64,000 nucleotides of DNA from positions 419,310 to 483,309 of the forward strand of contig CAITGV010000001.1 in the NCBI GenBank assembly GCA_903892035.1. The letters are read 5' to 3'. A program made the position numbers and the translations under genes. Positions 7,279 to 60,035 of the stretch are shown piece after piece (within the stretch, counting starts at the first letter, position 1; each line of letters starts with the position of its first letter). This DNA comes from an uncultured bacterium (GTDB lineage Bacteria; Patescibacteriota; Minisyncoccia; Phycocordibacterales; UBA9973). The notes under the pieces were generated by a model. It worked only from the letters and a program-made list of their open reading frames with translations. It searched no databases and had not been told where the DNA came from.

Positions 7279-7306
7279 GACTTTAGCAAACTAAAGTACT
7301 TTAGTC
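7279..7306. promoter_or_regulatory. Candidate operator: perfect 16-bp palindrome ACTAAAGTACTTTAGT with an extra GACTTTAG half-site
   Basis: Lies in the divergent promoter region between the YerC/TrpR-like gene (-) and the GH18 gene (+). The perfect dyad is visible in the sequence. Confidence 0.4.
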
Positions 7307-7353
7307 AAGTAAAGTAGAAAGATACCTGTGGATAAATTGTTTTTAGCTAGTGA

Positions 7354-8457: not shown

Positions 8458-8469
8458 TAGTATAATAGT

Positions 8470-9111: not shown

Positions 9112-9112
9112 T

Positions 9113-11264: not shown

Positions 11265-11265
11265 T

Positions 11266-12516: not shown

Positions 12517-12519
12517 AAA

Positions 12520-12558
12520 TTCAGGCTTAAAAGATTTCTCTAATAAGCCTGAATGTTT
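12520..12558. terminator. Hairpin between convergent murC and the minus-strand gene
   Basis: Stem TTCAGGCTTA/TAAGCCTGAA with a large loop, then a T-run. Located between convergent genes. Confidence 0.35.
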
Positions 12559-13115
12559 TCTTTTACAAAAAATTTTTGAAGGGAGATTTTAATCTCGCTT
12601 TCGACTGATTCTTGGTCATCGGATACAATGAGTGTATATTTCCCAAGTGATAGATTTTCAAAAAAACCATTATCACTTGTTTGAAAATATTCATCGTCTC
12701 CAAATAATTCAAAATCATAGTCACCATTTCCTCCTTGCGCATTTACATAAAGTGCTACATAATTTATGCATTCATTTAAAGAATCATAAATAATATTGTT
12801 TAGAAAAACTTTAAAATAAATATGCTGGTGAATAGTTACTTTTACTATTTTGCTTTGATTTCCTAAGTCATCTTTTAAAATGACATAGTAGTTACCTGAA
12901 TCTAGATCATTGAAAAAAAGTTCAGGTGAGAAGTTTTTACCACTATCGATAGAGGTGAGATAGTGGGAGTAGTTGTCAGCAGGAGAAATTTGAATATAAC
13001 CCCTATTTCCATTTTTCATCAGATTGCCTGTTGCAATACTGAAGTTAATTTCTTGAGCCTTGGAAATGGTATTAAATAATACCAACATCAAAGCAATTTT
13101 TAGTACTTTTATCAT
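12540..13115 (-). CDS. Hypothetical secreted protein with two internal repeats
   Basis: Signal peptide (MIKVLKIALMLVLFNTISKAQE). Repeated GNYYVILKDDLGNQS / GKYTLIVSDDQES units. Confidence 0.5.
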   Translation of the reverse strand: MIKVLKIALMLVLFNTISKAQEINFSIATGNLMKNGNRGYIQISPADNYSHYLTSIDSGKNFSPELFFNDLDSGNYYVILKDDLGNQSKIVKVTIHQHIYFKVFLNNIIYDSLNECINYVALYVNAQGGNGDYDFELFGDDEYFQTSDNGFFENLSLGKYTLIVSDDQESVESEIKISLQKFFVKENIQAY

Positions 13116-13228
13116 TGGTTTATTTAATTGTTAATAGATAGTTCTTTTTTATAATTATACAAAATTTGAACTTTATATCATAGTTTCTGAAAGGTTGTCT
13201 TTATTCTAATATAAGTTAACATAAGTAT

Positions 13229-16265: not shown

Positions 16266-16344
16266 ATTAGTGCGTTTTCTACCAAAACCACTTTAAATGA
16301 AAGATTTTTTTATCAAAACAATTAAATTAATTAAGAGGCATAAA

Positions 16345-19300
16345 ATGTTGCTAGGTTCTCTTGTTTTTTTGATGATTTTTTCTGTTGCTACTTATGCTCT
16401 TGCCACTCCACTTTATAATCCAGGTCAGACACTAAATCCTAGTTGTGTTCCTGGTAGCACAGATTGTACTGTGAATCTCGGTGCAGTAGATTTGGTGACC
16501 CGCACTATCACGAGTAATTTTACAATTGATTCTCTTGGCCATGACGACATTATTTATGCAGATACAAGTGCAGCAAATGATATTACAATTTCTCTTCCAG
16601 CAATTTCATCGATTAAGCGTGATTTATATTTTATTAAAACTGCCGCATCTCATACTGTGGTGATTTCACCAAATGGTATTGAGACTATAAATGGCGGAAC
16701 GTCTATTCAACTTACAGATATAAATCAATCAGTACATTTAGAAAGTTTGCAGACAGGTGGCTGGAGTGCGACTTACAATTTTCTTGATAATAATCGAGTT
16801 TCACCGATTGATGTAAAGGCTACAACGACAGCAGATCTTGGTACGGTGACTTATTACAATGGAATTTCTGACGATGGTGTTGGTGCTACAATTACAAATG
16901 CAGGTACTCTTCAAGCTTTTCCAAATCAAGATGGAATACCATTGAGTATAAACAATCGTGTATTGGTTCAGTATCAAACAGATCAAAGACAAAATGGCGT
17001 ATATGAACTTTCAACAGTTGGAGATGGTGCGACCCCCTGGGTTTTAACTCGTACAACTGACTCTGATCAAACTTCCGAACTTGATCCACAAATTGTAATT
17101 CCAACTCTTGGAACACAAGCCGGTGTTCAATTTACTCAGACGACGTTGCAACCAAGTATCGGTCCAGATGCAAATGGAATTGGTGATAATATTATTTACA
17201 CTGTTACAGTTGCGGCTTCACCAAATTTAAATGTTACCCAATCTTCAGCGGGTACTCAAGTTGCAAATCAAATTCCCGTATGGAATAGCACCACAAGGCA
17301 ACTAACAAAAGGAAGTGCAAATTTTACATTCAACGAAGCAGCACCAGCAAAAGTTTTGACAATTGGTGGCACTGACAATGGCGCGGGGCAAATAAATCTT
17401 GCAGGCCGAGTTTTTGCAAGACAGTGGGGTACAAAAGGAAATATTGCGGTAGGTCCTCTTTCTGGAAATCCAGCATATGGTCTCGACAATACTTTTATGG
17501 GTTATGGATCTGGAAATTCAGCTGCTACTTCAAATTCAATGAATTACAATAGTTTTTACGGAGCTCTTACTGGGCAAAATATTACATCAGGGACAAATAA
17601 TGTTTTAATTGGTTATCATTCTGGTACAAATGTTGCGTATGGAAATACAAATACATTTACTACGGCAAATAATAATACATTGATTGGATCTAGTACAACG
17701 TCTTGTTCAAATAATATGGTGTTGGGAGGAGAGTCATTTGATTATTATGCCACCGATCTACCTTATCCTCATGGGCTCGGTCAGACGTCATCAAGTAATT
17801 GTTTTATTCAAGATCATCAACCAAAATATTCTATAGCTTTAGGTTCGGGTGCAAATATTACCGATAGTAATGAATTAGTTATTGGTTCAAATACAAATTC
17901 TACAACAACAAATTCTGTACCATCAAATAAAAATGGACAAATTATTGAAGCGTATCTTGGTGCAGGTGTAGCAGCTCCAAATATTCAAGTTGGTGACTAT
18001 GTGCGCCTTCAGTCATCTAGTGGGCTAACTGATGATAGTGGTTTTGGTCCTGGAATATTAAGTTCAGATCAAAACGGTGAAGATTTCTATTTAGCTGCTG
18101 GTAGATCGACTGGTGCAGGAACGGGTGGAAAATTGGTTTTTCAAACTAGTAATCAAATGAATATTCATCCGATGCCAAATCCATTGGTTAATAGATTTAT
18201 TATTTACCCAAACAATAGTGGCAATACAGCTACCAGTGGACAAGTTGCCGTAACAGGAAGCAAATTTGGAATAAACGGATTGAATTATATTTGGCCATCA
18301 TCACAAGGTACTGATCTTACTTCTTTGTTTGATGACGGGTCCGGAAATTTATCATGGGTAAGTGCTTCTACGGCACGATCAAATCTATCTTTGGGTAGTA
18401 TAGCTTTATATAATGTTTTACCGATTGCCCAAGGTGGCACTGGAACATCAAGTTTTAGTAATTTTGGCGATAGCGGATCTTTTTTGGGAAGTAGTGGAGA
18501 GCGAATGAATAGCGTAGGAAGTGTTGTAAGTTCTGCTATCTACTCTGTTGATCCTAGTACTAATTCTTGCGCTGTGATTTCTGGAAATGGTATCGGTAGT
18601 CCACTATCAATAAGTACTTCTTCTCAAACATTTGCACTAAATAGTGGGGTTTCTATTACTTTTGGAGCAAATACTGGACATACCAAGGGAGATTCCTGGA
18701 CCTTTTCTGCTACTTCAAGTATTGGTTCTACAACTTTTACTGGAAGTGGTCTTAATGATATGACTACAAGTGGAACTTATACTGGAACTGGAACAACAAC
18801 TTATATAGTAAATATTCTTACAACAGGAGTGAATGATACTTTTAGTGTAAGCATTAGCAATAATGGTCTTATTTATGGTTCAGGGGCAACATGCCAATTG
18901 GTTATAACGAGCCACCAGATTAGTGCTGTAAATATTTTTGATTCAGTAGCTACTGGAGGTAATGGTTACTCATCTTTACATCCGCCGATTATATTAGTTA
19001 CTTCAGGTACAGTAAGTTCTGGTACAACTAACCTAGTTCCAATTTTTGGTTCTAGTGTTGCAAGTGTCAATGTCAATAGCTCAGCAACATATTCTGTCGA
19101 CCCAACAACTTGTTCTATTACTGCTGGTCAATCAGGACAAGGTGCAACTTGTACAGTTTCTGTTGCTAACCATAAGATTATTGCAATCAATGTAACAAAT
19201 GGTGGTAGTGGATATTCAAATAACAGTATCGATTCAGTTACAATATCTGACGGAACTATTAGTTCTGGGACAAATAGTTTTACTATATATTATGGATCTG

Positions 19301-20997
19301 GTGTAATGGTAAATCGATTATTAACGTTTACAAATGCAAATGGATTAGCAACAAATGTCGGTGGAACTTTAACTGCTCCCAATCTTGGTATCATTTCAAC
19401 AAATACTAAGCTTGATTTCAATATTCCAATGGCTGGTGCTAGTTTAACTTTTAATGCTGATGCAGGTAGTGGTGGTAGTTCAACATCGACAGTATTTCCA
19501 GTTGCTACAGCAGGATTGATTAGTACTGGAACTCAAACATTTGTCGGAAATAAATATTTCTGTGCAGCAAATGGATTGAATTCAAATGGTACTGCTTGTT
19601 CTACAAATTTCAATGGTGATGTGAACTTTAACTTCGGAGGTGGAAATTCAAGTGTGAATATGTCACATTCAGCAGTAGCCACAAACAATGGTGTAACTTT
19701 AGCTTGGGGTGCGACGACAGGCCACACTGCAGGCGACTCATGGACATTTACAGCTTCGTCTGGAGGAATCAATACTGCTACTGCAAATGGAAGTAATTTA
19801 GGTCCAGATGATTTGACGACAGGGGGAACTTTTTCTGGGTCAGGAACTGTGAGCTATGTTGTCACTGTTGTGTGTACGGCGGGTCATTCACCTTGTTCTG
19901 GTGTAGATAAATTTAGTTGGGCAACAAATGGAAGTAATGTTGTAAACTTTGCTGGAGCCACAGTAAACTTTTCTGCAAGTACGGTAAACTATACTGGTGC
20001 ATCACTAAATCTTTTGAGTACAAATCTTAATTTTGGTGATGGAAGTCACATTAACAATTTAACTGTAAATGATAGTGCGACATTCAGTGGACCTTCGTTT
20101 ATACTACAATCAGCAGTTACTAATTTTAATGGAGGGGGTATTAGTTTTGGAAATAGCGCTGATATTACTTTTGCAAATAATGGATTTAATGTAGTTTTTG
20201 GAACTCCATCTTTTTTCAATAATCAAATGTTTGCGACAAATTTGACGCCATCGTCGGCGGGGCAGTCGGCGCTTTGTTTGGATCCTGGGACATTTGAAGT
20301 CACACAGGATGCTTCTGGAATTTGTACGCCATCATCAGAGCGATTTAAACATGATATAAATTCTTTGACTGGTGCAAATGGGGGAACAAGCCTCGATACT
20401 ATTTTAGCTCTTCGACCAGTTTCATATCGTTACAACAATCTTGATCCAAACAATACAAAAAATCCTCGCCTTGGTTTAATTGCAGAAGAAGTAATAAATG
20501 TTGATCCACGTTTAGTTTCTTTTGAAGAAGATGGCACTACACCTCACGGAGTAAATTATTTTGATTTGACTGCAGTGCTTACAAAAGCGCTTCAGGAAGA
20601 AGATGTGAAAGTAAATAGTATTAGTGACTTGAGTCTTACAGATGGAAATTCATTTGGTGGAAAATTGCGAGCGTGGTTGGGAAGTGCGACAAATGGAATC
20701 ACATCACTTTTTGCTGACAAAGTTACAACAAAACAATTATGTTTGGAAGATGTCTGTGTGACAAAATCTCAATTACAAACATTGTTGCAAAATTCTGGCG
20801 GTGGGAACAGTGGGGGAGGAAATGTAAATCCTGCACCTACTCCAGATCCTACACCAGTTCCAGACCCAGTACTAACACCAACTCCAGACCCAACTCCGAC
20901 ACCAGATCCAGTGCCAAGCCCAAATCCTACTCCGGATCCGTCTCCAAATCCTTCACCTTCGCCAGACCCAACTCCTGACCCAATACCAGCTCCTTAG
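16345..20997 (+). CDS. Giant cell-surface protein (about 1550 aa) with a C-terminal peptidase S74 intramolecular-chaperone (phage tail-fibre-type) domain and a Pro/Thr-rich tail
   Basis: AAGAGG RBS 8 nt before the ATG at 16345; the ORF track start 16297 lies upstream in frame. Signal/anchor [19 protein letters not shown]. Ser/Thr/Gly/Asn-rich beta-rich body. S74 motif [20 protein letters not shown]...GLIAEEV near the C-terminus. Terminal (PTPDP)n low-complexity tail. Confidence 0.75.
20824..20994 (+). repeat. Low-complexity Pro-Thr/Asp codon repeat (PTPDP units) at the 3' end of the giant surface protein gene
   Basis: Tandem degenerate CCAACTCCAGACCCA-type units are visible in the sequence. 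Confidence 0.7.
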
Positions 20998-41353: not shown

Positions 41354-41710
41354 ATGGATACAAAAATCAAAATTTTAGATAAAAAGTGGAGTATTGATGA
41401 AGTGAAAACTCTTGCTGATTTATGGTATGGTTCTATGATTAAAGGTGCAGTGGATATAGAGGGTTCGCGTGTAGCTCTCGGTGGAGATTATCATATTGAA
41501 GATTCGGAGCTTTTAACTAACACTGGTTCAACATTTGAAAATGTTTGGGGTTTTAATATTCGTTTTGAAGAAAATCCTGAAGGTATTTTGGAATTTGATT
41601 CAATGGTCAACATAAAACCAAATTTTGGTAATCTTTCTAGATCAATAAATAATAAAGAAATTATCGAAAAAGCTACAGAAGTTATTTATAAATTTATAGA
41701 TTTAAAATAA
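41354..41710 (+). CDS. Hypothetical protein (118 aa)
   Basis: ORF between purL and the Cys-rich paralogs. Its stop abuts the next start. Confidence 0.45.
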   Translation: MDTKIKILDKKWSIDEVKTLADLWYGSMIKGAVDIEGSRVALGGDYHIEDSELLTNTGSTFENVWGFNIRFEENPEGILEFDSMVNIKPNFGNLSRSINNKEIIEKATEVIYKFIDLK

Positions 41711-41711
41711 T

Positions 41712-42005
41712 ATGGAAAAGAATTCACTTTTTTACATGGCAAATTTATATCCTGAAATAGGAAGACTTTTTACTTTTTACGATTCGGGAAAATTAGAAGC
41801 CGCAGAAAACGCAAAAATTCGAGCACTTTCAATAGTGGATAAAATACTTTCTTTTCGAGATATTATTCCGGCCGGTAGAGAAGAATGGTGTGTGATAAAA
41901 AATTTTATACTAGGATACGATAAATTAGACTCATATGAAAGAGAAATTTTAGAAAAATATAGTTACCCTTTTTCACTGAAATTTATGAAAGCATACAGTT
42001 CTTGA
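41712..42005 (+). CDS. Hypothetical protein (97 aa)
   Basis: ORF whose stop overlaps the start of the Cys-rich gene. Confidence 0.45.
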   Translation: MEKNSLFYMANLYPEIGRLFTFYDSGKLEAAENAKIRALSIVDKILSFRDIIPAGREEWCVIKNFILGYDKLDSYEREILEKYSYPFSLKFMKAYSS

Positions 42006-42093
42006 TTATGGAAACCAGGATCTGCCAAAATTGCAAAAATGATTTTACTATCGAGCCAGAAGATTTTTTGTTTTACGAAAAAATAAAAGTTCC
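42005..42093 (+). repeat. Near-identical ~90-bp 5' gene segment shared by the two Cys-rich paralogs (copy 1)
   Basis: ATTATGGAAACCAG(G/A)(A/G)TCTGCCAAAATTGCAAAAATGATTTTACTATCGAGCC(A/T)GAAGATTTTTTGTTTTACGAAAAAATAAAAGTTCC also occurs at 43711..43799. Confidence 0.8.
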
Positions 42094-43711
42094 TGCACCG
42101 ACATTTTGTCCGAAGTGTCGCTTGTATCGGCGTTCGGTGTGGCGCAATGAGCATTTTTTATTTAAGAAAAAAGATGACCTTACTGGAAACTTAATATTTT
42201 CTACATATTCTCCATCATCAAAAATTAAAATTTTTGAGCATTCCTATTGGTGGAGCGATGAGTGGGACCCAAAATCTTTTAGTAAGGAATATGATTTCAA
42301 TACAAACTTCTTTGAGCAATTTTATGATTTACTTTACTCAGTACCACTTTGCGATAGATCAATAAAAAGTTGTGTAGAAAGTGACTACTCAAACAATGCA
42401 ACTAATATTAAAAATGCATACCTTTGCTTTAATGCAAAAAATAGTGAGAATGTTTGTTACGGGTTTCATTTTAGCGGAAGTCATGACTGTGTGGATTTTT
42501 ATCAAACTAAAGACTCCCGTCTTTGCTATGAAACCTTTTCAGTTGTTGATTCTGAGCGTATGTTTTGGTGTAGTAACTGCTCGCAATGTTATAATTTATG
42601 GTTTTCAGATAATTGTAGAAACTGCACAGATTGTTTTGGTTGTGTAAACTTAAGAAATAAAAAATACTGTATTTTTAATAAACAATATACAAAAGAAGAA
42701 TATGAAAATGAAGTTAAAAAACTTTACGACGGATCTTTTTCTTGTTTACAGGAAATACTAAAAAAGGTAAAAATTTTTGAAAAACAATTTCCTGTACAGT
42801 ATTATCATGGGAAACACAATGTCAATGTGACTGGTGATTATATTTTTAAATCAAACAATACTTTTGATTGTTTTGAAATCCACAATGTAGATAATGCAAA
42901 ATTTTCTCAATTTATTAGACACTCTAAAGATGTTTATGATTTTAGTTGTTGGGGTATTTCATCGGAATTAATTTATGAGTCTGTAAGTTGTGGAGAAAGT
43001 TCACAAAATCTAAAATTTTGTTATGAATGTTGGCCAACATCTCATGATTTAGAATACTGTGTTGATTGTCACTCATCTTCGTATTGTTTTGGTTGCGTGA
43101 GTTTAAAAAAGGGAAAATACTGTATTTTCAATAAACAATATTCTAAAGATGAGTACTTTGAGCTAAGGTCTAGAATAATTGAACAAATGAATAAAATGCC
43201 TTATATTTCAAAAAATAAACAGATATATAAATATGGTGAATTTTTTCCGACTGAATTGTCACCATTTAATTACGAAGAATGTTCAGCTTCTGATTATTTT
43301 CCAAGTAATGAATTAATAAAAGTGCCGACAAATTATAAAATTGAAATAACACCTCAAGAATTACCAGAAATTTCTATTCAGGCAGATGATTCAATTGTTT
43401 ATAAAGTAATTGAATGCCAAGATAAACAATCCTGCAATCATCGTTGTGTTGGAGCTTTTAAAATAACAGATATTGAATTAAATTTTTATAAGCGTTTCAG
43501 TATACCGATACCTAGAATATGTCCAAACTGTAGATTTTATAATAGAATGGAAAAGTTAAATTCAGTGTTATCTCGTATTGATAATTGTATGTGTATCAAT
43601 GATTTACATGGGCATATGGGTAAATGTGGCCAAGAGTTTAAAACTAATTACCCTAAAAATAAGTCTAGAATATTATATTGTGAAGGTTGTTATCAAAAAG
43701 AAGTTATTTAA
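42008..43711 (+). CDS. Cys-rich repeat protein with N- and C-terminal zinc-ribbon motifs (paralog A)
   Basis: N-terminal CQNCKNDFTIEPEDFLFYEKIKVPAPTFCPKCR. About 20-aa Cys-spaced repeats, twice ending in CFGCVxL(R/K)xxKYCIFNKQY(T/S)K(E/D)EY. C-terminal LNFYKRFSIPIPRICPNCR plus a CxxC/HxH cluster. Confidence 0.7.
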   Translation: METRICQNCKNDFTIEPEDFLFYEKIKVPAPTFCPKCRLYRRSVWRNEHFLFKKKDDLTGNLIFSTYSPSSKIKIFEHSYWWSDEWDPKSFSKEYDFNTNFFEQFYDLLYSVPLCDRSIKSCVESDYSNNATNIKNAYLCFNAKNSENVCYGFHFSGSHDCVDFYQTKDSRLCYETFSVVDSERMFWCSNCSQCYNLWFSDNCRNCTDCFGCVNLRNKKYCIFNKQYTKEEYENEVKKLYDGSFSCLQEILKKVKIFEKQFPVQYYHGKHNVNVTGDYIFKSNNTFDCFEIHNVDNAKFSQFIRHSKDVYDFSCWGISSELIYESVSCGESSQNLKFCYECWPTSHDLEYCVDCHSSSYCFGCVSLKKGKYCIFNKQYSKDEYFELRSRIIEQMNKMPYISKNKQIYKYGEFFPTELSPFNYEECSASDYFPSNELIKVPTNYKIEITPQELPEISIQADDSIVYKVIECQDKQSCNHRCVGAFKITDIELNFYKRFSIPIPRICPNCRFYNRMEKLNSVLSRIDNCMCINDLHGHMGKCGQEFKTNYPKNKSRILYCEGCYQKEVI

Positions 43712-43799
43712 TTATGGAAACCAGAGTCTGCCAAAATTGCAAAAATGATTTTACTATCGAGCCTGAAGATTTTTTGTTTTACGAAAAAATAAAAGTTCC
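43711..43799 (+). repeat. Near-identical ~90-bp 5' gene segment shared by the two Cys-rich paralogs (copy 2)
   Basis: See copy 1. About 3 mismatches in 89 nt, far higher identity than the rest of the genes. Confidence 0.8.
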
Positions 43800-45456
43800 A
43801 CCTCCGACTTGGTGTGCTTACTGTAGGTTTATAAGAAAAATGACTTTCGTCAATGAGAGGTCTTTGTACAAAAGACAATGTGGAAATTGTGGAACTTCCA
43901 TTATCACAATGTATAAAGATACCAATTTATTTCCAGTTTGGTGTGTGAAATGTTATTTAGCGGATTCTTGGGACCCCGTAGCCTATGGTATAGATTTGGA
44001 TTTTTCTAAAAATTTCTTTACTCAGTTTAAAGAATTGCGAGATACCGTCCCACATCGTTCACTTGATCAAAATGAGAAGAATGGTAGTGATACAGAATAT
44101 TCCAATTTTTGTTATAGCAGTAAGAATTCCTATCTTTCTTTTAATGTCACAAGTTCAGAAAATATAAAGTATAGTAAATATGTTTTAAAAAAGAATAAAA
44201 ATTGCATCGATTCTTTTATATTTGCCGACAACGATAAATGTTACGAATTAGTTCAGGCAAGCAAGAATTATAATTGCTCTTTTCTTTTAGAAAGCAGAGA
44301 GTCTATTGATTCACATTTTCTGTATGATTGTTCAAATTGTGTTAGTTGTTGCTTATCTTCAAATATCCGAAATAAAAGCTTTGTTTTTGCCAATCAACAG
44401 CTTTCGAAAGAAGATTACATGAATGCAATAAAAGGACTTGAGCTCGGGACTTATACCGGCCAAGTTCGAGCCAAGAATATTTTTAAGGAAATAGTGGAAG
44501 GCTCAATTCATAAATATGCGCATAATAAAAATGCAGTAAACGTCACGGGGGACTTTATCGAGAATTCTAAAAATATTAAATATAGTTATGGTGTTGTGGG
44601 TGGAGAAAATATGAAAAATATTTTTTTTAGCATGAATGTGGCAAAAGATTCTCATGATTTAATATTTACCGGACGAGGAGAAGAATGTTATGAACTTGCA
44701 TACGGAGGTAGGGGAATAAATAGAGTCTTTTTTTCTTTTAGTTGCGGAAGTGGTAGTAAAAATTTGTTTTATTGTGACAATTGCAAGGCTTGCATGGATT
44801 GTTTTGGGTGTGTAGGGTTGCGGAACAAACAGTATTGTATCTTTAATAAAGAGTATACAAAAGAAGAGTATTTTAAAATCACAGACAAACTAAAAAAAGT
44901 CATGACCGATATGCCGTACGTTGATAAGATCGGCAGAGTTTATGGTTTTGGAGAGTATTTTCCTACAGAAATTTCTCCATTTGCATATAATGAAACAGTA
45001 GCATTTGAAGAACTGCCATTAAGCGAAGAGGGTGTTATTAAAAATGGATTTACATGGCAGAAGGCTGAAGCGAAGTCTCACATGCCAACAATTAGCGTAG
45101 ATGATATTTTAAATAATATTGCAGATATAGATGATAGTATTTGCAATGAAATTATATCTTGTCCTAACAATGGTAGTCCAAAAACTAGTTGTTCAGGAGC
45201 TTATAAAATTTTAAAAGATGAACTTACTTTTTATAAGCAAATGCATTTACCTATACCAAGGTATTGTCCAAATTGCAGATATCACCATCGTTTGGTTTGG
45301 AAAAATCCATTTCGTTTTTATAAAAGGCAATGCATGTGTGAAAAGGAAAACCATGGGCATGAGGGATCATGTCCTAACAAGTTTGAAACCTCATATTCCC
45401 CAGAACGTCCAGAAGTGGTATATTGTGAGAAGTGTTATCAAAAAGAGGTTATATGA
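43714..45456 (+). CDS. Cys-rich repeat protein with N- and C-terminal zinc-ribbon motifs (paralog B)
   Basis: Same architecture as paralog A (ETRVCQNCKNDFTIEPEDFLFYEKIKVPPPTWCAYCR ... LTFYKQMHLPIPRYCPNCR). The first ~90 nt are nearly identical to paralog A. Confidence 0.7.
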   Translation: METRVCQNCKNDFTIEPEDFLFYEKIKVPPPTWCAYCRFIRKMTFVNERSLYKRQCGNCGTSIITMYKDTNLFPVWCVKCYLADSWDPVAYGIDLDFSKNFFTQFKELRDTVPHRSLDQNEKNGSDTEYSNFCYSSKNSYLSFNVTSSENIKYSKYVLKKNKNCIDSFIFADNDKCYELVQASKNYNCSFLLESRESIDSHFLYDCSNCVSCCLSSNIRNKSFVFANQQLSKEDYMNAIKGLELGTYTGQVRAKNIFKEIVEGSIHKYAHNKNAVNVTGDFIENSKNIKYSYGVVGGENMKNIFFSMNVAKDSHDLIFTGRGEECYELAYGGRGINRVFFSFSCGSGSKNLFYCDNCKACMDCFGCVGLRNKQYCIFNKEYTKEEYFKITDKLKKVMTDMPYVDKIGRVYGFGEYFPTEISPFAYNETVAFEELPLSEEGVIKNGFTWQKAEAKSHMPTISVDDILNNIADIDDSICNEIISCPNNGSPKTSCSGAYKILKDELTFYKQMHLPIPRYCPNCRYHHRLVWKNPFRFYKRQCMCEKENHGHEGSCPNKFETSYSPERPEVVYCEKCYQKEVI

Positions 45457-45510
45457 TTAAAATAAAGGCTGTAAAAAATGAGAACCCCGTAGTAGATTTT
45501 TGACTCGATT

Positions 45511-45777
45511 ATGTTCTATGTATATTGCCTAGAAAGTGAAAAATATGATGAACTTTATTTTGGTTATACCAATGATCTTAAACGTAGATTTAAAGAACAT
45601 AATCAGAAGTTAAATTTTTCAACAAAAAGATATGCACCATGGAAAATTATTTACTACGAAGCATGTTTAAACGAAAGTGATGCAAAAAGACGTGAGAAAT
45701 ATTTAAAAACTACGCAAGGTGGCAGAATGATAAAAATTAGATTAAAAGAATATTTTTATGAAAAAAGAAAAATTTAA
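45511..45777 (+). CDS. Stand-alone GIY-YIG nuclease-domain protein (88 aa, YhbQ/UPF0213-like)
   Basis: YVYCLESEKYDELYFGYTNDLKRRFKEHN gives GIY-YIG with the conserved Arg and Glu/His. Confidence 0.7.
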   Translation: MFYVYCLESEKYDELYFGYTNDLKRRFKEHNQKLNFSTKRYAPWKIIYYEACLNESDAKRREKYLKTTQGGRMIKIRLKEYFYEKRKI

Positions 45778-48172: not shown

Positions 48173-48769
48173 ATGAGATTAGCAATTTTAATTTCAAATG
48201 CAGGTACGGGTACAAATTTGCAAGCAATTATAGATGCCATAGAGAGCGGAAAATTAAATGCTTCGATTTGTGCTGTTGTTTCTGATAAAACGGAAAGCCC
48301 TGGACTCGAAAGAGCAAAGAAGCACAACTTGCCGATAGAGATATGCGCCAAAAAAGAAGATTTGAAGTCCCTTTTAGAAAAATTAAATCCTGATTATATT
48401 TGCCTTGCAGGTTGGAAACAAATAATTTTAGACGAAGTAATTTTGGCTTTTCCGGATAAGATTTTGAATCTACATCCCGGACTTATTCCAAATACTTTAG
48501 ATACTGCCGTCCAAAATCCAGATGGTAGTTATGCTCTTTGGAATGAAGGAATGCTTACAGACAAAGCGATACAAAATTTCTTGGACAAAAAATCCACATA
48601 CGCCGGCTCTTCAGTTCATTTTTTAACTCTGCATTTTGATTTTGGTCCAGTCCTCGGTCACACATTTGAAAAAATTGAATCTGACGATACTGTCGAAACT
48701 CTCTACTCACGATTGAAAGTAAAAGAAAATGTACTCTACGTGAGTGTTTTGCAAAAATTAGCTAATTAA
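48173..48769 (+). CDS. purN: Phosphoribosylglycinamide formyltransferase
   Basis: MRLAILISNAGTGTNLQAIIDA..., HPGLIP, and a formyl-transferase fold. The ORF track's longer version (48002) overlaps purF and is an in-frame extension. Confidence 0.8.
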   Translation: MRLAILISNAGTGTNLQAIIDAIESGKLNASICAVVSDKTESPGLERAKKHNLPIEICAKKEDLKSLLEKLNPDYICLAGWKQIILDEVILAFPDKILNLHPGLIPNTLDTAVQNPDGSYALWNEGMLTDKAIQNFLDKKSTYAGSSVHFLTLHFDFGPVLGHTFEKIESDDTVETLYSRLKVKENVLYVSVLQKLAN

Positions 48770-48770: not shown

Positions 48771-48926
48771 ATGAATGATAAAAAACAAAAAATTTTAGAT
48801 CTTAAAAAAGAAATGGATGCAAAACTACTAGTACTCCGCCTGAAAAGGAAAGATATTATTCTTAAATTTAAAAAAAAGCTTGAAGAGGTAAAAATAAATC
48901 AAATCAGAAATAAAATATCTAAATAG
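48771..48926 (+). CDS. Possible small coiled-coil protein (51 aa)
   Basis: ATG-initiated ORF MNDKKQKILDLKKEMDAKLLVLRLKRKD... fills the purN-to-giant-gene gap. Below the ORF-track cutoff; weak. Confidence 0.25.
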   Translation: MNDKKQKILDLKKEMDAKLLVLRLKRKDIILKFKKKLEEVKINQIRNKISK

Positions 48927-48933: not shown

Positions 48934-51900
48934 ATGGCATCAAGAGAAGAAAAAAAGAAAATTGAGAATAAAGAAACAAAAAAAGTTGTTGCTAGTAATA
49001 AGGAGGGGAAGGAAGTATCTCAAGAAGAATTTTTAAATATTGCGAATGCAGAGAAAAGTAAATTTGAAGAAGAGACTAAAAATGCTTTACAAAATCTCAA
49101 CTCAGTTGACCTAGATGAACATACTTTTAACGAGATAAAGAATGAAAATAAAATTGAAGAAGCGTTGGGTGAAAACTTAAAAGAGGCCAATGCGGTAATT
49201 GAGAACGCAAAGAAGAGCCTAGAGGGCGCTGAATTTAACAGAGATAAGTGCCTCTATGATTTGAAGGCCAAAATTGAAAATGCCAATAGTCTCGAGGAAA
49301 TTGTGAGTGCAGTGACGATCGTACTCGAAAGTCAAAAAGACAGAGAGGACTTAAAGATGTTATTTAATAATTTTAAGTTTAAGGCATCTGAATTGACGAG
49401 CGATGGCAAGGAGAGTCTTGTTAAAGACTATTTCGGTGACATAGTCAAAACAATTACTGAATCACTGAGCGATCCTCGAAACGTAGAACAAGTAAAGAAT
49501 ACAGACTTAGTGGACATAAAAAAACAATCCATAGAAGCACTGAGTGATATTGTTCCACCTACTTTACAGGGACAAGAAAGCCCGGAGTATCTTAAAATGC
49601 TAGAGAAAATTCAGTCTAAGATTGTTGTTCCAGAATACAATTTAAGCGAATTTGTGGATTTTTTAAACCAGTATAATGAAGTGTCAAAAGGCAGGGAGGG
49701 CACGTTTGATAAATTTATCTTTAAAGATTTTCCAAAGAAAAAAGATGACTTTTTCCATGTAAAAAATGAAATTAATTATTTATTGCAAGACCCGCTTGCG
49801 CTAGAAAAAATTGACTTTATTGATAAAAGTAGCCTAAATAAAACTCTCAATCTTTTTGACGGAGATGAATTTTATAGAACTGAATATGGTGGACCGGAGA
49901 AGGCAGAGTTTCTAGAAGACAGCAACATTCTCAAGATGCCCGATTATAAAAAAGGTGTAAATATTTTTAATACTGAATACGTTCAAACAGAAAGGGCGAA
50001 CAAATTACACGGACTGTCGTTAGGGTCACTGAAACTTGCCAAAAACAACGAGTATTTTGACATTAAAACTAAGTATTCATCTGGTGCTCCAACGATAAAT
50101 CTAATCACAGAGGAAGAACTAAAGAAAATTCACGATTTTGATAGTAATCTAAAAGAATTAGATCTATATCAAATGGAATATTTCAAAGAAAATGTTGAAA
50201 ACCTACCGCAAGACATCAAAGATTTTTACCAGAAAGTTTATAACGAGCAGAATTATTCAGGTAATTTTAGCGCAGTCGCAAATAAATCTTTTTTTGAACT
50301 GGCAAAAAGTCCTGAAAACCTGAATAAAATTAAGAAATGCTTTGAGTCCAGATTGATTAGCACTATATACGATAATAATTATATCGAAAGAGTTGCGGAG
50401 TTAGATGAAAAAATCATTGATTTGATGATAGAAACTGGAGAGGGCTTGAATGCAAACATAGAATTGTTGGAAAAAGTTGCCGGCTTAAACGATCCTGACA
50501 AGGAGAAGTACAAGGAAATTGTTGCGGGGTACAGTCTTTTATCAAATTACGATAAACTTGAAACAACAGAATATGTACAGCGTATAAAGGAAATACCTGC
50601 TGAAGAAATGGACTTTTTTCTGAAATGGCAGAATACTCAGGGTAATAAGTGCTATTTTGGAATCAAAAAACTTACAGGGCCGTTGGATGACGCACTGTAT
50701 AGGAAGGAAGATTTCTCTAAACTAGTAGAGTTCCATAATAGTAGCCCAGACGCGGACTCCTTGATTTTTGATTTTTTTGCCAAGAATGATCCATACGTTT
50801 CTGATATAGTAAGAAATATTGAAACATATGGAAAAAATCCAAAAAAGTTTTTTACAGATAACCCAAAGGATGTTATTAAAAATTTTGATGAGATTCAAAA
50901 GCTTTTGGCGAGTAGGGGCGAGTCTTTAAATCAAGAAGAACTTAACTCAATATTCAATTATACTTTGAAGAGTAGTCCTCAGATGTTTCTTGAAAAAATC
51001 AGCTTCCCACTCTCACCAGAACAGCAGAAAGTTATTGATATTTTCACGAAAATTTCAAACTCGCCATCAAGTGAAATGAAAAATATGGCGCTCGAGCTCT
51101 CACTGCAGATAGTGGAGGGTGGGGATCTTTCAACCATCGATGAACGATATGAAAAGATTGATAGCATTTTTGTGCGAAACAATATCCCGTTTGTGGGAAA
51201 GCAGGCAAAGATTTGTGAAGCGCTCCACCCTCAGATAGTTACACAAAATAATTCTAGCCCAGAACTGCAATCTCTACATAGCAACAATGCTAGGCGACTT
51301 TTGATTTTCAAAGATTTGATGCTCACAAACTTTAACAGTTTGAACTCAAACTTGGAACAATATCTTTTGGTTTTCAAAAGTGGTCAGGAGGTTTTGGATA
51401 AATATGAAAGTGGTGAGCAGTTGAGCGGAGACGAAGAAGAAAAACTGAAGTATTTCTTTAAAAAGATTAACGCTCTTTCCGAAAATACCAAAAAGACTGA
51501 CAAGTTCAACAAGTTTGATTTGGAAGATTTAAGTTTGACTGAAAACTTGCAAGCGCTGAAATCAAATTTTGGTGTTGGAGAAAATCAGACAATAATCGGC
51601 AAATTTGAAGATACTTTTTTGAAAAGAATTGGTATAAGTAATTTCTCTGAAGCCCTAAAACGTTATGATGATTTACGTGAAGCAGTAAGCAACCGTAATA
51701 AGCAACTAGCGGAGAGTGGGCAGATTAATTTAGGTGAAAATGATTTAGCTAAGGGTATTTCTATTGATTATTTTGATAAAAATCTTGATCGAGGTATTTA
51801 TGCACCTGAGTTTATTGGGGCAGAAACCATTGAAGCAAAAGGTAAATCAAAAGGCAGTGATTCTACGCCATGGGATACGGATTTAATTATGGTCGGAAAT

Positions 51901-53154
51901 AGGAATACTTCAGAAATTATAGAAAAATCTACAGCTTCAGGGTATGGCGAAGCAATAATAATCATCAGAGATAGAGGCCAATTTAATCGTACGGAAAAAG
52001 GACAACCCATAGAAAAAGGTCAAGATAAATTGGAGTTATTTAAGACTCGTGCTTTGGGCGAGGACCATTATGGTATCAGGACTGGTTTTGGTTCGACCGA
52101 GATTGATGCGTTGCTGGCCAAGGATAATGTAATACAAAATAGCAAACAGCTAGATTCGCTGAAGTTCTCAATAGCGCAAAAGGGCTTCTATATACCTATC
52201 TGCGATAAAACAGGCAAGGTTATTTTTACTGCCGATGAATATGAAGAATACAAGAAAATATTTGCTGGTGTTGATAAATATCATGGTGAGGAAATCAGCT
52301 TACGGGAAGACTGGAAAAATTCTAAATTCAGCGAAGACATTAGCAAGTTTTCTCAAACTAACGAAAATCTTGATAATATTAACAAGATTAAGGATGATAT
52401 TTATTCTGATATTGAAAGTGACCTGAAAACTTTTGGAATTGAGCTTCATAAAGGACGTTACGACGATAGCGTTGTGGGAGCAAAGATAATCGATACAGGC
52501 TCTACTGGTCGTGGTGCAGCCCTCGACGAAGGATATGATCTTGACTTTGTTATTAAGGTCGACGATCGGGATGCAGATAAGATTAGTCAAATGGCTGAAA
52601 ATTTGAAAAAGAAGTATCCATATGATCAAGATTATGAAAGAGATGGCATGAGAACGTATAGGTTTAAGAGTTTTGAAAAAGATGGAAACAAAATTGACTT
52701 GGATATTAGTTTTGTCAAAAAATCAGACAGTGAAGAACTTGATGCAAATGAAGCCGTCGCGCAGAAGTACGACTCTATCAAAAAATCTTCAGGAGAAGAT
52801 AAGTTACTTGATGTTCTAACAAATGTCAGATTTGCAAAAAAGGAGTTGAAGGAAGCAGGTTGCTATAAGAAAGGAATGACTGGTAATGGAGAACAACAAG
52901 GCGGAATGGGTGGCATTGGCGTTGAAAACTGGATATTGCAAAATGGTGGAGATGCGGTGGATGCATTTAGAGATTTCAATAAAAATGCTTACCAAGATGG
53001 TGAACTCGTATCATTTAATGACTTCAAGAAAAAATACAAGATCTTCAGCGCTGGTAGCAATATACGAGGCGGAGTCAAGGCAGAAAACTTCGTTTATAAT
53101 ATGGATGAAACAGGCTATAATAAAATGGCTGAACTTTCGAAGAAGTTTATTTAG
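48934..53154 (+). CDS. Giant (1406 aa) protein: long Lys/Glu/Asn-rich helical N-terminal region plus a C-terminal polymerase-beta-superfamily nucleotidyltransferase domain
   Basis: C-terminal motif IIDTGSTGRGAALDEGYDLDFVIKVDD (hG[GS]x9-13DhD) plus a downstream IDLDISF acidic strand. No signal peptide. Located inside the pur cluster. Confidence 0.75.
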   Translation: MASREEKKKIENKETKKVVASNKEGKEVSQEEFLNIANAEKSKFEEETKNALQNLNSVDLDEHTFNEIKNENKIEEALGENLKEANAVIENAKKSLEGAEFNRDKCLYDLKAKIENANSLEEIVSAVTIVLESQKDREDLKMLFNNFKFKASELTSDGKESLVKDYFGDIVKTITESLSDPRNVEQVKNTDLVDIKKQSIEALSDIVPPTLQGQESPEYLKMLEKIQSKIVVPEYNLSEFVDFLNQYNEVSKGREGTFDKFIFKDFPKKKDDFFHVKNEINYLLQDPLALEKIDFIDKSSLNKTLNLFDGDEFYRTEYGGPEKAEFLEDSNILKMPDYKKGVNIFNTEYVQTERANKLHGLSLGSLKLAKNNEYFDIKTKYSSGAPTINLITEEELKKIHDFDSNLKELDLYQMEYFKENVENLPQDIKDFYQKVYNEQNYSGNFSAVANKSFFELAKSPENLNKIKKCFESRLISTIYDNNYIERVAELDEKIIDLMIETGEGLNANIELLEKVAGLNDPDKEKYKEIVAGYSLLSNYDKLETTEYVQRIKEIPAEEMDFFLKWQNTQGNKCYFGIKKLTGPLDDALYRKEDFSKLVEFHNSSPDADSLIFDFFAKNDPYVSDIVRNIETYGKNPKKFFTDNPKDVIKNFDEIQKLLASRGESLNQEELNSIFNYTLKSSPQMFLEKISFPLSPEQQKVIDIFTKISNSPSSEMKNMALELSLQIVEGGDLSTIDERYEKIDSIFVRNNIPFVGKQAKICEALHPQIVTQNNSSPELQSLHSNNARRLLIFKDLMLTNFNSLNSNLEQYLLVFKSGQEVLDKYESGEQLSGDEEEKLKYFFKKINALSENTKKTDKFNKFDLEDLSLTENLQALKSNFGVGENQTIIGKFEDTFLKRIGISNFSEALKRYDDLREAVSNRNKQLAESGQINLGENDLAKGISIDYFDKNLDRGIYAPEFIGAETIEAKGKSKGSDSTPWDTDLIMVGNRNTSEIIEKSTASGYGEAIIIIRDRGQFNRTEKGQPIEKGQDKLELFKTRALGEDHYGIRTGFGSTEIDALLAKDNVIQNSKQLDSLKFSIAQKGFYIPICDKTGKVIFTADEYEEYKKIFAGVDKYHGEEISLREDWKNSKFSEDISKFSQTNENLDNINKIKDDIYSDIESDLKTFGIELHKGRYDDSVVGAKIIDTGSTGRGAALDEGYDLDFVIKVDDRDADKISQMAENLKKKYPYDQDYERDGMRTYRFKSFEKDGNKIDLDISFVKKSDSEELDANEAVAQKYDSIKKSSGEDKLLDVLTNVRFAKKELKEAGCYKKGMTGNGEQQGGMGGIGVENWILQNGGDAVDAFRDFNKNAYQDGELVSFNDFKKKYKIFSAGSNIRGGVKAENFVYNMDETGYNKMAELSKKFI

Positions 53155-53168: not shown

Positions 53169-54479
53169 ATGCAAAAACAGAAAATTTTAATAATAGGTGG
53201 AGGAGGACGTGAGCATGCGGTCGGGTGGAAAGTGGCGCAGTCGCCGAGAGCGGGTGAGCTGTTTTTTGCGCCCGGCAATGCGGGTACTGCGACACTTGGT
53301 ACAAACGTACCTATTTCTGCTACAGATATTCCTGCACTTATTAATTTTGCAAAAAAAGAAAATATTGATTTAACCTTGGCTTTGCCGGATGATCCACTTT
53401 CACTCGGTATTGTTGATCAGTTTAATGCCGAAGGTCTACGAATCTGGGGACCAACAAAAGCTGCCGCTCAACTTGAATCTTCGAAAGCTTATGCAAAAGA
53501 TTTTATGAAAAGGCACAATTTGCCTACAGCAAAATTTGAAACATTTACTGATTTTGAAAAAGCAAAAGAATATGTAGCAAATGGGTCGTTGCCAGTCGTA
53601 ATCAAAGCAAGTGGTTTGGCGCTCGGGAAAGGTGTGGTTATTTGTGAGACTCTCAATCAAGCAAATGAAGCATTGGAAAATATGCTCGTGAAAAAAGTTT
53701 TTGGCGAATCTGGTGCGACTGTCGTGATTGAAGAGTTTTTATTAGGTCCAGAAATTTCCATTCATGCATTTTGTGACGGAGAAAATTATAAAATATTTCC
53801 TTCCGCTCAAGATCATAAAAGAGTAGGTGTTGGGGACACAGGACCCAATACTGGCGGAATGGGTACAGTTGCACCAGTGCCATTTGCATCCACTGAATTA
53901 ATGAAAAAAATTGAAGAGAGTATTGTCGCTCCGACTTTGCGCGCAATGGTTGCGGACGGAATCCCATTTCAAGGTGTTCTTTTTCCAGGACTGATGCTGA
54001 CAAAAGATGGTCCTAAGATTTTGGAATTTAATGCACGCTTTGGCGACCCAGAAACACAATCTTTTATGCGTTTACTCGACACTGACCTGATTGAAATTAT
54101 TGAAGCGACACTCGATCATAAACTTAATGAAATAGAAATAAAATGGAAACCTTTATTCGCCTGCAACATTGTACTTGCATCTCTAGGCTATCCAGGGAAT
54201 TATGAAAAGGGGAAAGTGATTACGGGACTTGAGAAGTTTCCTCCCCTTGATAAGGGGGAGGTGCCAGAGGCGGAGGGGGTTGTATTATTTCATGCTGGTA
54301 CAAAGGCAGAAAATGGAGAACTTTTAACCAATGGCGGGCGGGTGCTCGGTGTATCAGCCACAGGAAATACACTTCCTGAAGCCCTAGAGAAAGCTTATAA
54401 AGCAATTGAGAGCATTAATTTCGATGGTATGCAATATCGCAAAGATATTGGAAAAAATGCGATGAAAATGCTAGAGTAA
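53169..54479 (+). CDS. purD: Phosphoribosylamine--glycine ligase
   Basis: ILIIGGGGREHA N-terminus and an ATP-grasp core. Carries one palindromic-element insertion near the C-terminus. Confidence 0.9.
   Translation: MQKQKILIIGGGGREHAVGWKVAQSPRAGELFFAPGNAGTATLGTNVPISATDIPALINFAKKENIDLTLALPDDPLSLGIVDQFNAEGLRIWGPTKAAAQLESSKAYAKDFMKRHNLPTAKFETFTDFEKAKEYVANGSLPVVIKASGLALGKGVVICETLNQANEALENMLVKKVFGESGATVVIEEFLLGPEISIHAFCDGENYKIFPSAQDHKRVGVGDTGPNTGGMGTVAPVPFASTELMKKIEESIVAPTLRAMVADGIPFQGVLFPGLMLTKDGPKILEFNARFGDPETQSFMRLLDTDLIEIIEATLDHKLNEIEIKWKPLFACNIVLASLGYPGNYEKGKVITGLEKFPPLDKGEVPEAEGVVLFHAGTKAENGELLTNGGRVLGVSATGNTLPEALEKAYKAIESINFDGMQYRKDIGKNAMKMLE
54237..54284 (+). repeat. Variant in-frame palindromic element (purD copy)
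   Basis: CCTCCCC-TTGATAA-GGGGAGG, then TGCCAGAGGCGGAGGGGGTTG. Encodes PPLDKGEVPEAEGV immediately before the conserved VLFHAGT. Confidence 0.65.
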
Positions 54480-58453: not shown

Positions 58454-58528
58454 GCCATCATAGCTTAGTGGCAAAGCACTCCCTTGGTAAGGGAGAGACC
58501 GTGAGTCCGATTCTCACTGATGGCTCCA
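58454..58528 (+). tRNA. tRNA-Thr (anticodon GGT)
   Basis: Acceptor GCCATCA/TGATGGC, discriminator T, CCA encoded. Anticodon loop CTTGGTAA; T-arm GAGTCCGATTCTC. Confidence 0.85.
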
Positions 58529-60035
58529 GAATCAAACAGGACGGGTTTTGAGAAAAATTTTGGCGGGCAGAGCGAAGCTCTGCCCAAGGATTTAAAGGGT
58601 TTCCGAATGCTTCTCGTTTTTGGAGGGTGAGGCTCGAGCCGAAGATTTTTTGGAGGGAGATTTTTTTGGAGGGGAGGTCGTTCGTATTGGCGATTTCATC
58701 CAGTATTAAAGCGTCTTTTATCCATTCTCGCGTCGGTTCGATCCATGCGGAGGGGGTTCGCAAAAGTCGCTGTATTTTTTCCTCAACAGACTTTTTATCG
58801 GACATGAAAGAACGACGCCTTTCGAGGTAGTCGTCTCGTTCGATATCTTGAGAAACATAGACATCTGTAAGTCTGGTGAGGTTTTTTGAAATGTTTTGTT
58901 CTTCTTCTCGCAATTCCAACACAGCTTCTGATGCAGTATGTTTATTTTTCTGTTCTTCAACATCCAACATTTCAAAAAGTTTTGTCGCCCATGCTTTAGG
59001 CATCATATATTCAACAAGTATTGCTGAAAGCTGGCGATCCAGTTCTTCGCCTCGCACGCAAGGCTCAAAACATTTTTGCGTTTTGGATTTCTTTGAGCAG
59101 TGATAATAGGTGTATAAATGTTTTGTGCCATTCTTTTGTCGTTTGATTTTTAGCTCTCCCGTTATTCCCATGCCACAATTCCCGCACGACATAAGCCCGC
59201 AAAATGGTCTCGGGTCAGTTTTCTTGTCGGGCGTTCGACCGCGACCTCGCAATACAGCGTTTGCTTTATCAAAAAGTTCTTTGGAAATAATCGGTTCATG
59301 TTTACCCTCGTATATTTCCCCTGCGTGGCGAAAATGTCCGTAGTAGATAGGGTTGCAAATAATATGCGATATTCTCGAAACATGGACACGATTATTATTT
59401 TTTGATTTTATTTCCGAGTTTTCCAAAATCACAGCGAGGTCTTCAAGTCGCACATTTCCTGTGGCGTAAAGTTCAAATATTTTCTTCACGAGTTTCGCAT
59501 TTTTTTGATGAAGTGCAATTTTCTTGATTGCGGGATTGTTGATATAGCCGAACGGAGCAAGACTGGGGAAGTCGCCATTTCGTGCCTTTTGTCGCAGTCC
59601 GCGAGCGGTATTTTCGCTGAGTTGTCGGACATATTCATTAGCCATTCCTAGCTCCACAGACATCATCAACACATTGTCATTTGGAAAATGACTTTGTCCG
59701 TGAGTTTGGATATGTTGGATTATGTTTTGCTGGAGCATCCATTGGATTTTTCCGCTATCTACTGGATTACGAGATAAGCGATCAATTTTCCAGCAAACAA
59801 TTCCTTGCGCTTCTTCATTCTGAACACGCGAAAGCATTTCATTAAAAATTGGTCTGCCTGGAATTTTCGCAGAACGCTTTTCTATAAACTCATCGGCGAT
59901 TGATAGATTTTCACGCTTGGCAAGCTCGCGCAATTCGGTGAGCTGTGCCTCGATAGATAGGATTTGTTTATCCTCCACATCTGTTGATTTGCGAGCGTAT
60001 AAAAAGTATTTAAGCATGGTTGTATTATACCACAA
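58458..60035 (-). CDS. Large serine recombinase (resolvase/invertase N-domain, recombinase domain, zinc ribbon, coiled coil)
   Basis: N-terminal YARKSTDVEDKQILSIEAQ (catalytic Ser), zinc-ribbon CGLMSCGNCG...HCSKKSKTQKC and a coiled-coil. The last ~75 codons read through the left inverted repeat and the tRNA-Thr antisense, so the true C-terminus is uncertain. Confidence 0.85.
   Translation of the reverse strand: MWYNTTMLKYFLYARKSTDVEDKQILSIEAQLTELRELAKRENLSIADEFIEKRSAKIPGRPIFNEMLSRVQNEEAQGIVCWKIDRLSRNPVDSGKIQWMLQQNIIQHIQTHGQSHFPNDNVLMMSVELGMANEYVRQLSENTARGLRQKARNGDFPSLAPFGYINNPAIKKIALHQKNAKLVKKIFELYATGNVRLEDLAVILENSEIKSKNNNRVHVSRISHIICNPIYYGHFRHAGEIYEGKHEPIISKELFDKANAVLRGRGRTPDKKTDPRPFCGLMSCGNCGMGITGELKIKRQKNGTKHLYTYYHCSKKSKTQKCFEPCVRGEELDRQLSAILVEYMMPKAWATKLFEMLDVEEQKNKHTASEAVLELREEEQNISKNLTRLTDVYVSQDIERDDYLERRRSFMSDKKSVEEKIQRLLRTPSAWIEPTREWIKDALILDEIANTNDLPSKKISLQKIFGSSLTLQKREAFGNPLNPWAELRSARQNFSQNPSCLILEPSVRIGLTVSPLPRECFATKL
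58522..58692. repeat. Left ~170-bp inverted repeat of the recombinase element (overlaps the tRNA-Thr 3' end)
   Basis: Near-identical to the reverse complement of 61060..61243. Contains internal palindrome GGGCAGAGC-GAA-GCTCTGCCC and three TTTTTGGAGGG sub-repeats. Inner end: TTGGAGGGGAGGTCGT. Confidence 0.8.

Follow-up and report, generated by a model that had tools for sequence, protein, structure and literature searches.

A new family of giant proteins with a C-terminal Pol-beta-type nucleotidyltransferase domain, found in one genome between purN and purD

In the 64,000-nucleotide stretch of the patescibacterial contig CAITGV010000001.1 analysed here (hereafter the window), the purine biosynthesis genes purN (48173..48769) and purD (53169..54479) flank an open reading frame (ORF) of 1406 codons. 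All three are co-directional, the giant ORF ends 14 nt ahead of purD, and the order of the cluster is purL, purQ, purF, purN, giant gene, purD, purE, purM, purC, purB. The question raised by this locus is what such a protein does and whether its place among the pur genes bears on its function. An earlier reading of the DNA letters (hereafter the original prediction), exact in the coordinates, strand and length of the ORF, had ascribed to it a C-terminal Pol-beta nucleotidyltransferase (NTase) domain. The features of the locus on which the analysis rests are these:

48934..53154 (stop codon included), plus strand: giant ORF, 1406 aa; identical protein P0001, orthologs P0002 and P0003.
48934..51000, plus strand: N-terminal extension, residues 1-689, Lys/Glu/Asn-rich, with no recognisable domain (delimited by identity to the orthologs and family comparison).
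51001..51723, plus strand: all-helical conserved region, residues 690-930 (AlphaFold2 model, conservation in 141 members).
51724..52335, plus strand: conserved alpha/beta domain of unassigned fold, residues 931-1134 (AlphaFold2 secondary structure, conservation).
52336..53151, plus strand: two-lobed Pol-beta-type NTase, residues 1135-1406, with a catalytic lobe and a helical lobe like that of poly(A) polymerases and OAS (AlphaFold2, Foldseek).
52498..52545, plus strand: catalytic motif G1189-S1190 ... D1202-x-D1204, 100% conserved in 141 homologs.
52702..52704, plus strand: third catalytic acid, D1257, within IDLDISF, 100% conserved in 141 homologs.
48771..48926, plus strand: small ORF, 51 aa, Lys/Glu-rich and probably helical, a candidate partner whose position is conserved in related loci.

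The giant ORF is a real gene and a chance origin is excluded, because it maintains 1406 codons in DNA of ~35% GC and is matched by orthologs and by hundreds of remoter homologs. An identical copy of the protein, P0001, is present on contigs of up to 488 kb, and the full-length orthologs P0002 and P0003 showed 65% and 53% identity, respectively. Searches of the whole protein against Pfam, NCBIfam, PADLOC (E<=1) and PDB sequences gave zero matches, and four sub-fragments were equally without a match in these searches. Neither a transmembrane-like nor a signal-like hydrophobic segment was found in the protein, which agrees with the signal peptide having been predicted as absent. The richness in Lys, Glu and Asn described beforehand was likewise observed, K, E, D, N and Q together accounting for 42% of residues 1-930.

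When residues 1135-1406 alone were used as query, 51 relatives were retrieved and a 42-row alignment was made. The AlphaFold2 model of this 272-aa region obtained from that alignment had a predicted local distance difference test score (pLDDT) of 90.1 and a predicted TM-score (pTM) of 0.88. The two motifs quoted in the original prediction are present, GSTGRGAALDEGYDLDF at residues 1189-1205 and IDLDISF at residues 1254-1260. In the model the GS pair, D1202-L-D1204 and D1257, the last of these on a long strand (residues 1252-1262), all sit on the elements expected for the Pol-beta NTase fold. As modelled, the domain therefore belongs to the Pol-beta NTase superfamily, with its hG[GS] loop, its [DE]h[DE]h strand and its third acid on a later strand. 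With Foldseek, 36 PDB matches reached E<=1e-3, and every one is a Pol-beta-type NTase carrying a second, helical lobe. The best was 1r89, an archaeal class I CCA-adding enzyme (E=6.6e-6, probability 1.00, query-normalised TM-score (TMq) 0.57). Cid1 was matched with TMq 0.56-0.59 and CdnC/CdnD with 0.45-0.52, NF90/NF45 and TbTUT4 were also matched, all of these likewise at probability 1.00, and CutA, cGAS and the palm of Pol lambda fell just under the cut-off (E=2e-3 to 7e-3, probability 0.98-1.00). Among the 42 aligned relatives weak Pfam matches were obtained, to PF01909 in 10 and to SMODS (PF18144) in 4, and the best PDB sequence-profile matches, OAS2 and OAS3, were non-significant.

Conservation was then assessed in 141 family members. 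G1189, S1190, R1193, D1202, D1204, D1257, K1302, L1305, Y1311 and G1374 are 100% conserved, and the GG-GG-G-E-W segment (residues 1323-1333) is 91-99% conserved. The third catalytic acid, whose identity the original prediction had left to be checked, is D1257, and neither a fold other than that of an NTase nor a substitution of the catalytic residues in the orthologs was encountered. The invariance of the GS/DxD/D set together with R1193, K1302 and Y1311 argues for an active enzyme.

The size of the family was estimated by an exhaustive HMMER search with residues 1-1134 as query, which yielded 670 cluster representatives at E<=1e-3 and 337 at E<=1e-30. Nearly all these representatives, most of them 1100-3069 aa long, matched just residues ~640/690-1130. 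In 125 of 148 representatives the core match continued past residue 1380 and hence included the NTase, and among the 40 listed the complete-core members end 0-16 residues past the NTase match. A scan of one genome per species provided 533 family loci, the best 79 of which were used for locus-level taxonomy, architecture and neighbour counts. The fused giant form predominates among these 79, which come mostly from many lineages of the candidate phyla radiation (CPR) and otherwise from metagenome-assembled genomes (MAGs) of gut and rumen Bacilli and Clostridia. All named family members are 'hypothetical protein' entries from Patescibacteria, Parcubacteria or Magasanikbacteria; some locus records are titled 'uncultured Gammaproteobacteria', an unconfirmed label. 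Two paralogs were seen in one genome in a Bacilli MAG (L075 and L076) and in another MAG (L066 and L082). A transmembrane-like segment occurs in only 2 of 139 large members. In L067 (355..14169) and L073 (10..14094) the frame runs on past the NTase for more than 2000 residues, with no runs of N, and in L071 (37..5352) for about 400 residues, so the NTase core can also be internal to still larger proteins. The combination of a giant protein and an NTase, which had been regarded as unusual, is the standard architecture of this family of at least 670 cluster representatives. This is a new family and a new domain architecture inside the known Pol-beta NTase superfamily; a full-text literature search found no description of it, a result that covers the searchable library only and is no proof of absence.

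Comparison with the two orthologs divides the protein into parts that evolve at different rates. Identity to P0002 and P0003 was 46% and 32% for residues 1-689, 83% and 70% for residues 690-930, 79% and 64% for residues 931-1134, and 89% and 71% for residues 1135-1406. Judged by these alignments, the N-terminal ~690 residues diverge fast and the conserved core corresponds to residues ~690-1406. The N-terminal part (1-689) was matched in only a few of the closest relatives in the exhaustive search, the stretch preceding the core (counted from residue 640) varies across the family between 2 and 2343 aa, with a median of 690, and a Pfam scan of 25 giant relatives detected no N-terminal domain recurring among them. 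The region 690-930 is characterised by the motifs SPSxE, NN-P-VGK, DLL and S-N-SL, and in the AlphaFold2 model of residues 650-1134 (pLDDT 80.7) helices extend up to residue ~925.

Four independent loci have a shorter NTase gene, placed immediately after a large gene without annotation:

L006: upstream genes of 838 aa and 94 aa, NTase gene of 533 aa.
L007: upstream gene of 833 aa, NTase gene of 644 aa.
L008: upstream gene of 906 aa, NTase gene of 423 aa.
L009: upstream gene of 1192 aa, NTase gene of 700 aa.

The C-terminal end of the L009 upstream partner (residues 1050-1185) aligned to residues 700-816 of the giant protein (E=4e-9), the L008 partner aligned to residues 738-924 of P0002, and L007 linked to L009. 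No match to the giant N-terminus was obtained by BLASTP with the ~835-aa upstream genes of L006 and L007. By these alignments the interpretation of two fused genes holds for the conserved helical region, and not demonstrably for residues 1-690. Motif mapping revealed that the break point varies by lineage; in L008 (Clostridia; 5267..9272) the gene is broken within the alpha/beta domain, where the HYGIRTG motif would lie, with a 13-nt gap. The order of parts in the split variants follows that of the fused protein, which ties the sequence ahead of the NTase functionally to it. An NTase gene of ~407 aa resembling the L008 form (cluster P0017) was present on more than 160 contigs, which indicates that such short forms are common in gut samples. 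Some seemingly standalone matches are fragments, as is P0006, part of a 1336-aa protein. After the L007 split locus (10042..13552) come a gene with a Bro-N domain and a further unannotated gene of 865 aa.

The genomic context was compared across the family. Genes of the pur pathway adjoin the family gene in none of 88 other loci, the orthologs P0002 and P0003 adjoin unrelated genes, and purine context is thus found only in this genome. The 122 nearest neighbours are housekeeping genes, among them class II ribonucleotide reductase (RNR), CTP synthase, aminoacyl-tRNA synthetases, penicillin-binding proteins, ABC transporters, PolA, TGT and sigma-70. Genes of nucleotide metabolism recur as neighbours: class II RNR occurs at four related loci and CTP synthase at two (downstream in L016, L017, L019 and L020, upstream in L028), besides the pur operon of the window; this could be due to chance in small genomes. 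Among the best 79 loci there was no large neighbour gene family common to more than five and no conserved effector or Cap-like gene next to any of them, and a HEPN neighbour was lacking both there and at the locus under study. PADLOC gave only generic matches on the neighbour genes, and neither IMG/VR contigs nor phage records yielded a relative of the family. Housekeeping neighbours, the lack of an effector and the lack of viral relatives speak against a CBASS-like (cyclic oligonucleotide-based antiphage signalling) system, a toxin island and a phage origin. A defence-island context was accordingly rejected, as was a phage or mobile origin for want of matches, and the defence or signalling role raised by the original prediction, for which co-occurring effector genes were to be looked for, gained no contextual support. 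A functional link to purine synthesis, also suggested then, was discarded on account of the 0/88 other loci with a pur flank. Altogether, it is very likely that the giant gene encodes an active NTase of a new family and that its location in the pur cluster is incidental.

What the enzyme acts on can be proposed with less assurance. The best explanation, which we hold tentatively and at rather less than even confidence, is a soluble cytoplasmic, template-independent nucleoside triphosphate (NTP) transferase of a new family that probably acts on RNA 3' ends. The RNA 3'-end acceptor is favoured because of the closest fold, the housekeeping context and the lack of an effector; this acceptor, the use of NTPs, the activity itself and the roles of the other parts of the protein are what we infer. 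In such an enzyme the NTP would be bound through the GS loop and through K1302, K1306 and Y1311 of the helical lobe, and D1202, D1204 and D1257 would transfer a nucleoside monophosphate with two metal ions, without a template, to a 3'-OH, most probably that of an RNA end (tailing). That K1302, K1306 and Y1311 bind the triphosphate is proposed by analogy with Cid1, OAS and CCA-adding enzymes. The helical and alpha/beta domains, which accompany the NTase in every case, fused to it or in the gene next to it, would serve to choose or present the substrate, or would supply a second activity. Lineage-specific targeting or regulation may be the part played by the small upstream protein and by the N-terminal ~690 residues, which are variable, and the place in the purine operon would be a genome-specific insertion, with co-transcription and no functional purine link.

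The NTase falls in the structural group to which archaeal class I CCA-adding enzymes, Cid1-type terminal uridylyltransferases, OAS and CD-NTases belong. Cid1/TUT4-type terminal uridylyltransferases and non-canonical poly(A) polymerases (4e8f, 4fh3, 2q0e, 6ywp) gave the top query-normalised TM-scores, 0.56-0.59; their minimal layout of two lobes is that of the giant protein's NTase, the alignment spans both lobes, and they act without a template on RNA 3' ends. They are, however, eukaryotic families with 11-14% identity to the giant protein, which has no match to their profiles PF01909 and PF03828. The class I CCA-adding enzyme of A. fulgidus (1r89, 4x4u) shares the GS/DxD/D catalytic lobe followed by a helical 'neck' lobe, so that both the head and the neck of that enzyme class are found in the giant NTase. 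The motif K..LK....YK...GG-GG-G-E-W of the giant protein is placed where a K...G.SGY..ELL-type motif lies in the CCA family. In contrast, the CCA-adding enzyme, a protein of ~440 aa, has tRNA-binding body and tail domains where the giant protein ends with the NTase; a target-normalised TM-score of 0.34-0.39 reflects the unmatched part of the target. Identity is 11-13%, there is no Pfam match, and more than 1100 unrelated residues precede the NTase. The organisms that carry the giant protein are moreover bacteria, in which class II CCA enzymes are the norm, as is stated for Patescibacteria (10.64898/2026.05.29.728689).

Several points weigh against an RNA-tailing function. The similarity to Cid1 and CCA-adding enzymes (TMq 0.57-0.59) is only slightly above that to CdnC, CdnD and cGAS (0.45-0.52), a small difference. 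Fold similarity cannot tell RNA tailing from the synthesis of oligo- or cyclic nucleotides or from protein nucleotidylylation. Neither of the RNA-binding domains of CCA-adding enzymes, body and tail, is present, and the near-invariant HYGIRTG motif is missing in the L008 lineage. The near-invariant polar residues of the alpha/beta domain hint at a second catalytic activity for which RNA tailing does not account, and a conflict-related role would likewise be in keeping with the patchy distribution and with the fast evolution of the N-terminus.

The foremost rival, unlikely in our estimation, is a sensor-synthase in the manner of OAS, cGAS and the CD-NTases, in which a ligand (e.g., a cue from phage or host) is sensed by the variable N-terminus, and a linear or cyclic oligonucleotide second messenger for an effector encoded elsewhere is produced by the NTase. 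In its favour, CdnC and CdnD (6p8v, 6p8u; E=4.5e-5 to 1e-3) and cGAS were among the significant fold matches; in the sequence, SMODS appeared weakly in 4 of the 42 relatives, and OAS2 and OAS3 headed the non-significant profile matches. A fast-evolving N-terminus joined to a conserved enzymatic C-terminus is moreover typical of sensors. Against it, the giant protein itself has no CD-NTase, SMODS or PADLOC match and no effector operon. A CBASS operon comprises an effector, often with Cap2/3 or HORMA/TRIP13, whereas no such genes neighbour this family, with no effector or Cap-like gene at the 79 loci, and the CBASS architecture lacks the giant fused form seen here. Housekeeping neighbourhoods and the absence of the family from IMG/VR and phage records point the same way.

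A further reading starts from the alpha/beta domain, in which K940, E959, D976, T978, D981, D983, H1045, R1049, T1050, Y1086, P1088 and G1112 are near-invariant. Foldseek against the PDB with the 650-1134 model gave no significant match; the best were ADP-ribosyltransferase (ART) folds (tankyrase E=0.26; DarT probability 0.57). These tankyrase/PARP and DarT matches concern the alpha/beta domain only, are non-significant (E=0.26, probability <=0.57), and neither an H-Y-E nor an R-S-E triad can be assigned in it. The domain matched no PDB-sequence or Pfam profile, ART profiles included, the middle region gave nothing informative by Foldseek against BFVD, and the family alignments A2, A5 and A6 against PDB sequence profiles returned only non-significant OAS2/OAS3 matches and coiled-coil noise. 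We make no claim for a HAD-like, Toprim-like (E...DxD) or ligase-like (K-G) interpretation of its motifs. It is conceivable, and decidedly unlikely, that the protein is a two-enzyme machine peculiar to bacteria with reduced genomes (CPR, gut Firmicutes). In it, the alpha/beta domain (K940/E959/D976/D981/D983/H1045/R1049/Y1086) would house a second, new catalytic centre, possibly ART-like and NAD-using. This centre and the Cid1/CCA-like NTase would jointly build or modify an RNA end or a product derived from nucleotides, and the protein of the small upstream ORF would serve as a dedicated subunit. If true, this would be a housekeeping pathway of nucleic-acid or nucleotide modification without counterpart in model bacteria.

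The original prediction had noted no partner gene nearby, a statement that has to be revised in view of the 51-aa ORF, whose stop lies 7 nt ahead of the giant's ATG and which many related loci have conserved in this position. It matched the 60-aa ORF upstream of the ortholog P0003 (locus L002) by BLASTP (E=3e-5), and a short ORF on the same strand (~50-60 aa in many CPR loci) ends at the start of the giant gene in 29 of 55 complete loci, several of these ORFs overlapping that start by ATGA. A hidden Markov model (HMM) was built from 17 such ORFs and run on 16,786 short segments. All its matches at E<0.01 were located upstream of the giant gene and on its strand; they included the non-seed loci L024, L017, L042 and L041, the L042 match being upstream of where its frameshifted giant gene would begin. 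No small ORF was found in the Bacilli loci by the HMM search.

Many CPR loci conserve the small upstream ORF, translationally coupled to the giant gene, and this would also suit a self-contained abortive-infection or toxin NTase that, in the manner of MenT/AbiEii, tails tRNA or other RNA when triggered and blocks translation; its antitoxin or regulator would be the small ORF and its trigger sensor the N-terminus. The variable genomic position, the variable N-terminus and the paralogs in single MAGs (L075/L076, L066/L082) are in keeping with it. Nevertheless, the DUF1814-type NTase of MenT/AbiEii, with its antitoxin, had no counterpart for the giant protein in Pfam or PADLOC and is absent from the top 50 folds, the flanks are housekeeping genes and not defence islands or mobile elements, and the small ORF is lacking in Bacilli loci. 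We consider this reading quite improbable.

More doubtful again is a protein nucleotidylyltransferase, an AMPylase or UMPylase like GlnE, GlnD or DrrA, whose protein target would be recognised by the helical and alpha/beta regions. The GS...DxD core is common to such enzymes, and the large accessory regions could be target-binding modules. The GlnE/GlnD affinity named in the original prediction nonetheless received no support, for the top 50 fold matches contain no GlnE, GlnD or DrrA entry and no Pfam or NCBIfam match to those families was obtained. Nor do these 50 include any MNT (minimal nucleotidyltransferase), kanamycin-NTase, MenT or AbiEii entry. The MNT-like label also given to the domain did not survive the comparison: the MNT of HEPN-MNT pairs is a single lobe of ~100-150 aa accompanied by a HEPN gene, in contrast to the 272-aa domain with a second helical lobe found here, which had no Pfam, NCBIfam or PADLOC match.

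A catalytically dead NTase-fold scaffold such as NF45/NF90 or MiD51 is very improbable, as the catalytic residues are all invariant in the 141 homologs, unlike those of pseudo-NTases, even though NF90/NF45 DZF domains are among the fold matches. Least of all can credence be given to an enzyme or regulator of de novo purine synthesis; the tight co-directional packing (gaps of 7 and 14 nt) and the RNR (four) and CTP synthase (two) neighbours of related loci would favour it, against the 0/88 other loci with a pur flank, the unrelated contexts of both orthologs (65%, 53%) and the other insertions carried by the same pur cluster. An NTP transferase probably acting on RNA 3' ends thus remains the explanation that we tentatively prefer.

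The further genes inserted in the pur cluster lie in the purL-purQ interval (41354..45777):

41354..41710: DUF5674 gene.
Within 41354..45777: ORF of 97 aa.
42002..43711 and 43687..45456: two tandem Cys-rich paralogs, 38% identical, with 40 and 34 Cys and no Pfam match.
45511..45777: GIY-YIG gene.

Directly downstream of purB, a tRNA-Thr (58454..58528) adjoins the gene of a large serine recombinase (58458..60035, minus strand), after which comes a helix-turn-helix (HTH) gene, the region extending to 60281; this layout suggests an integrated element. Elsewhere in the window a second giant ORF (16297..20997, 1566 aa), unrelated to the giant NTase protein, is preceded by a UvrD/PD-(D/E)XK helicase-nuclease gene (13229..16219), and its only recognised domain is a Peptidase_S74 (endosialidase-chaperone) domain near the C-terminus.

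A large part of bacterial diversity belongs to the CPR/Patescibacteria, and no function has been assigned to the majority of the proteins conserved in them. For the window itself a false lead has been removed, the location in the purine operon being without functional meaning. The family has been kept as a protein of 1100-3000 residues in very small genomes, with an invariant enzymatic centre and no annotation. Assignment of its substrate would reveal a new nucleotide- or RNA-modifying activity and would give a name to hundreds of 'hypothetical proteins'.

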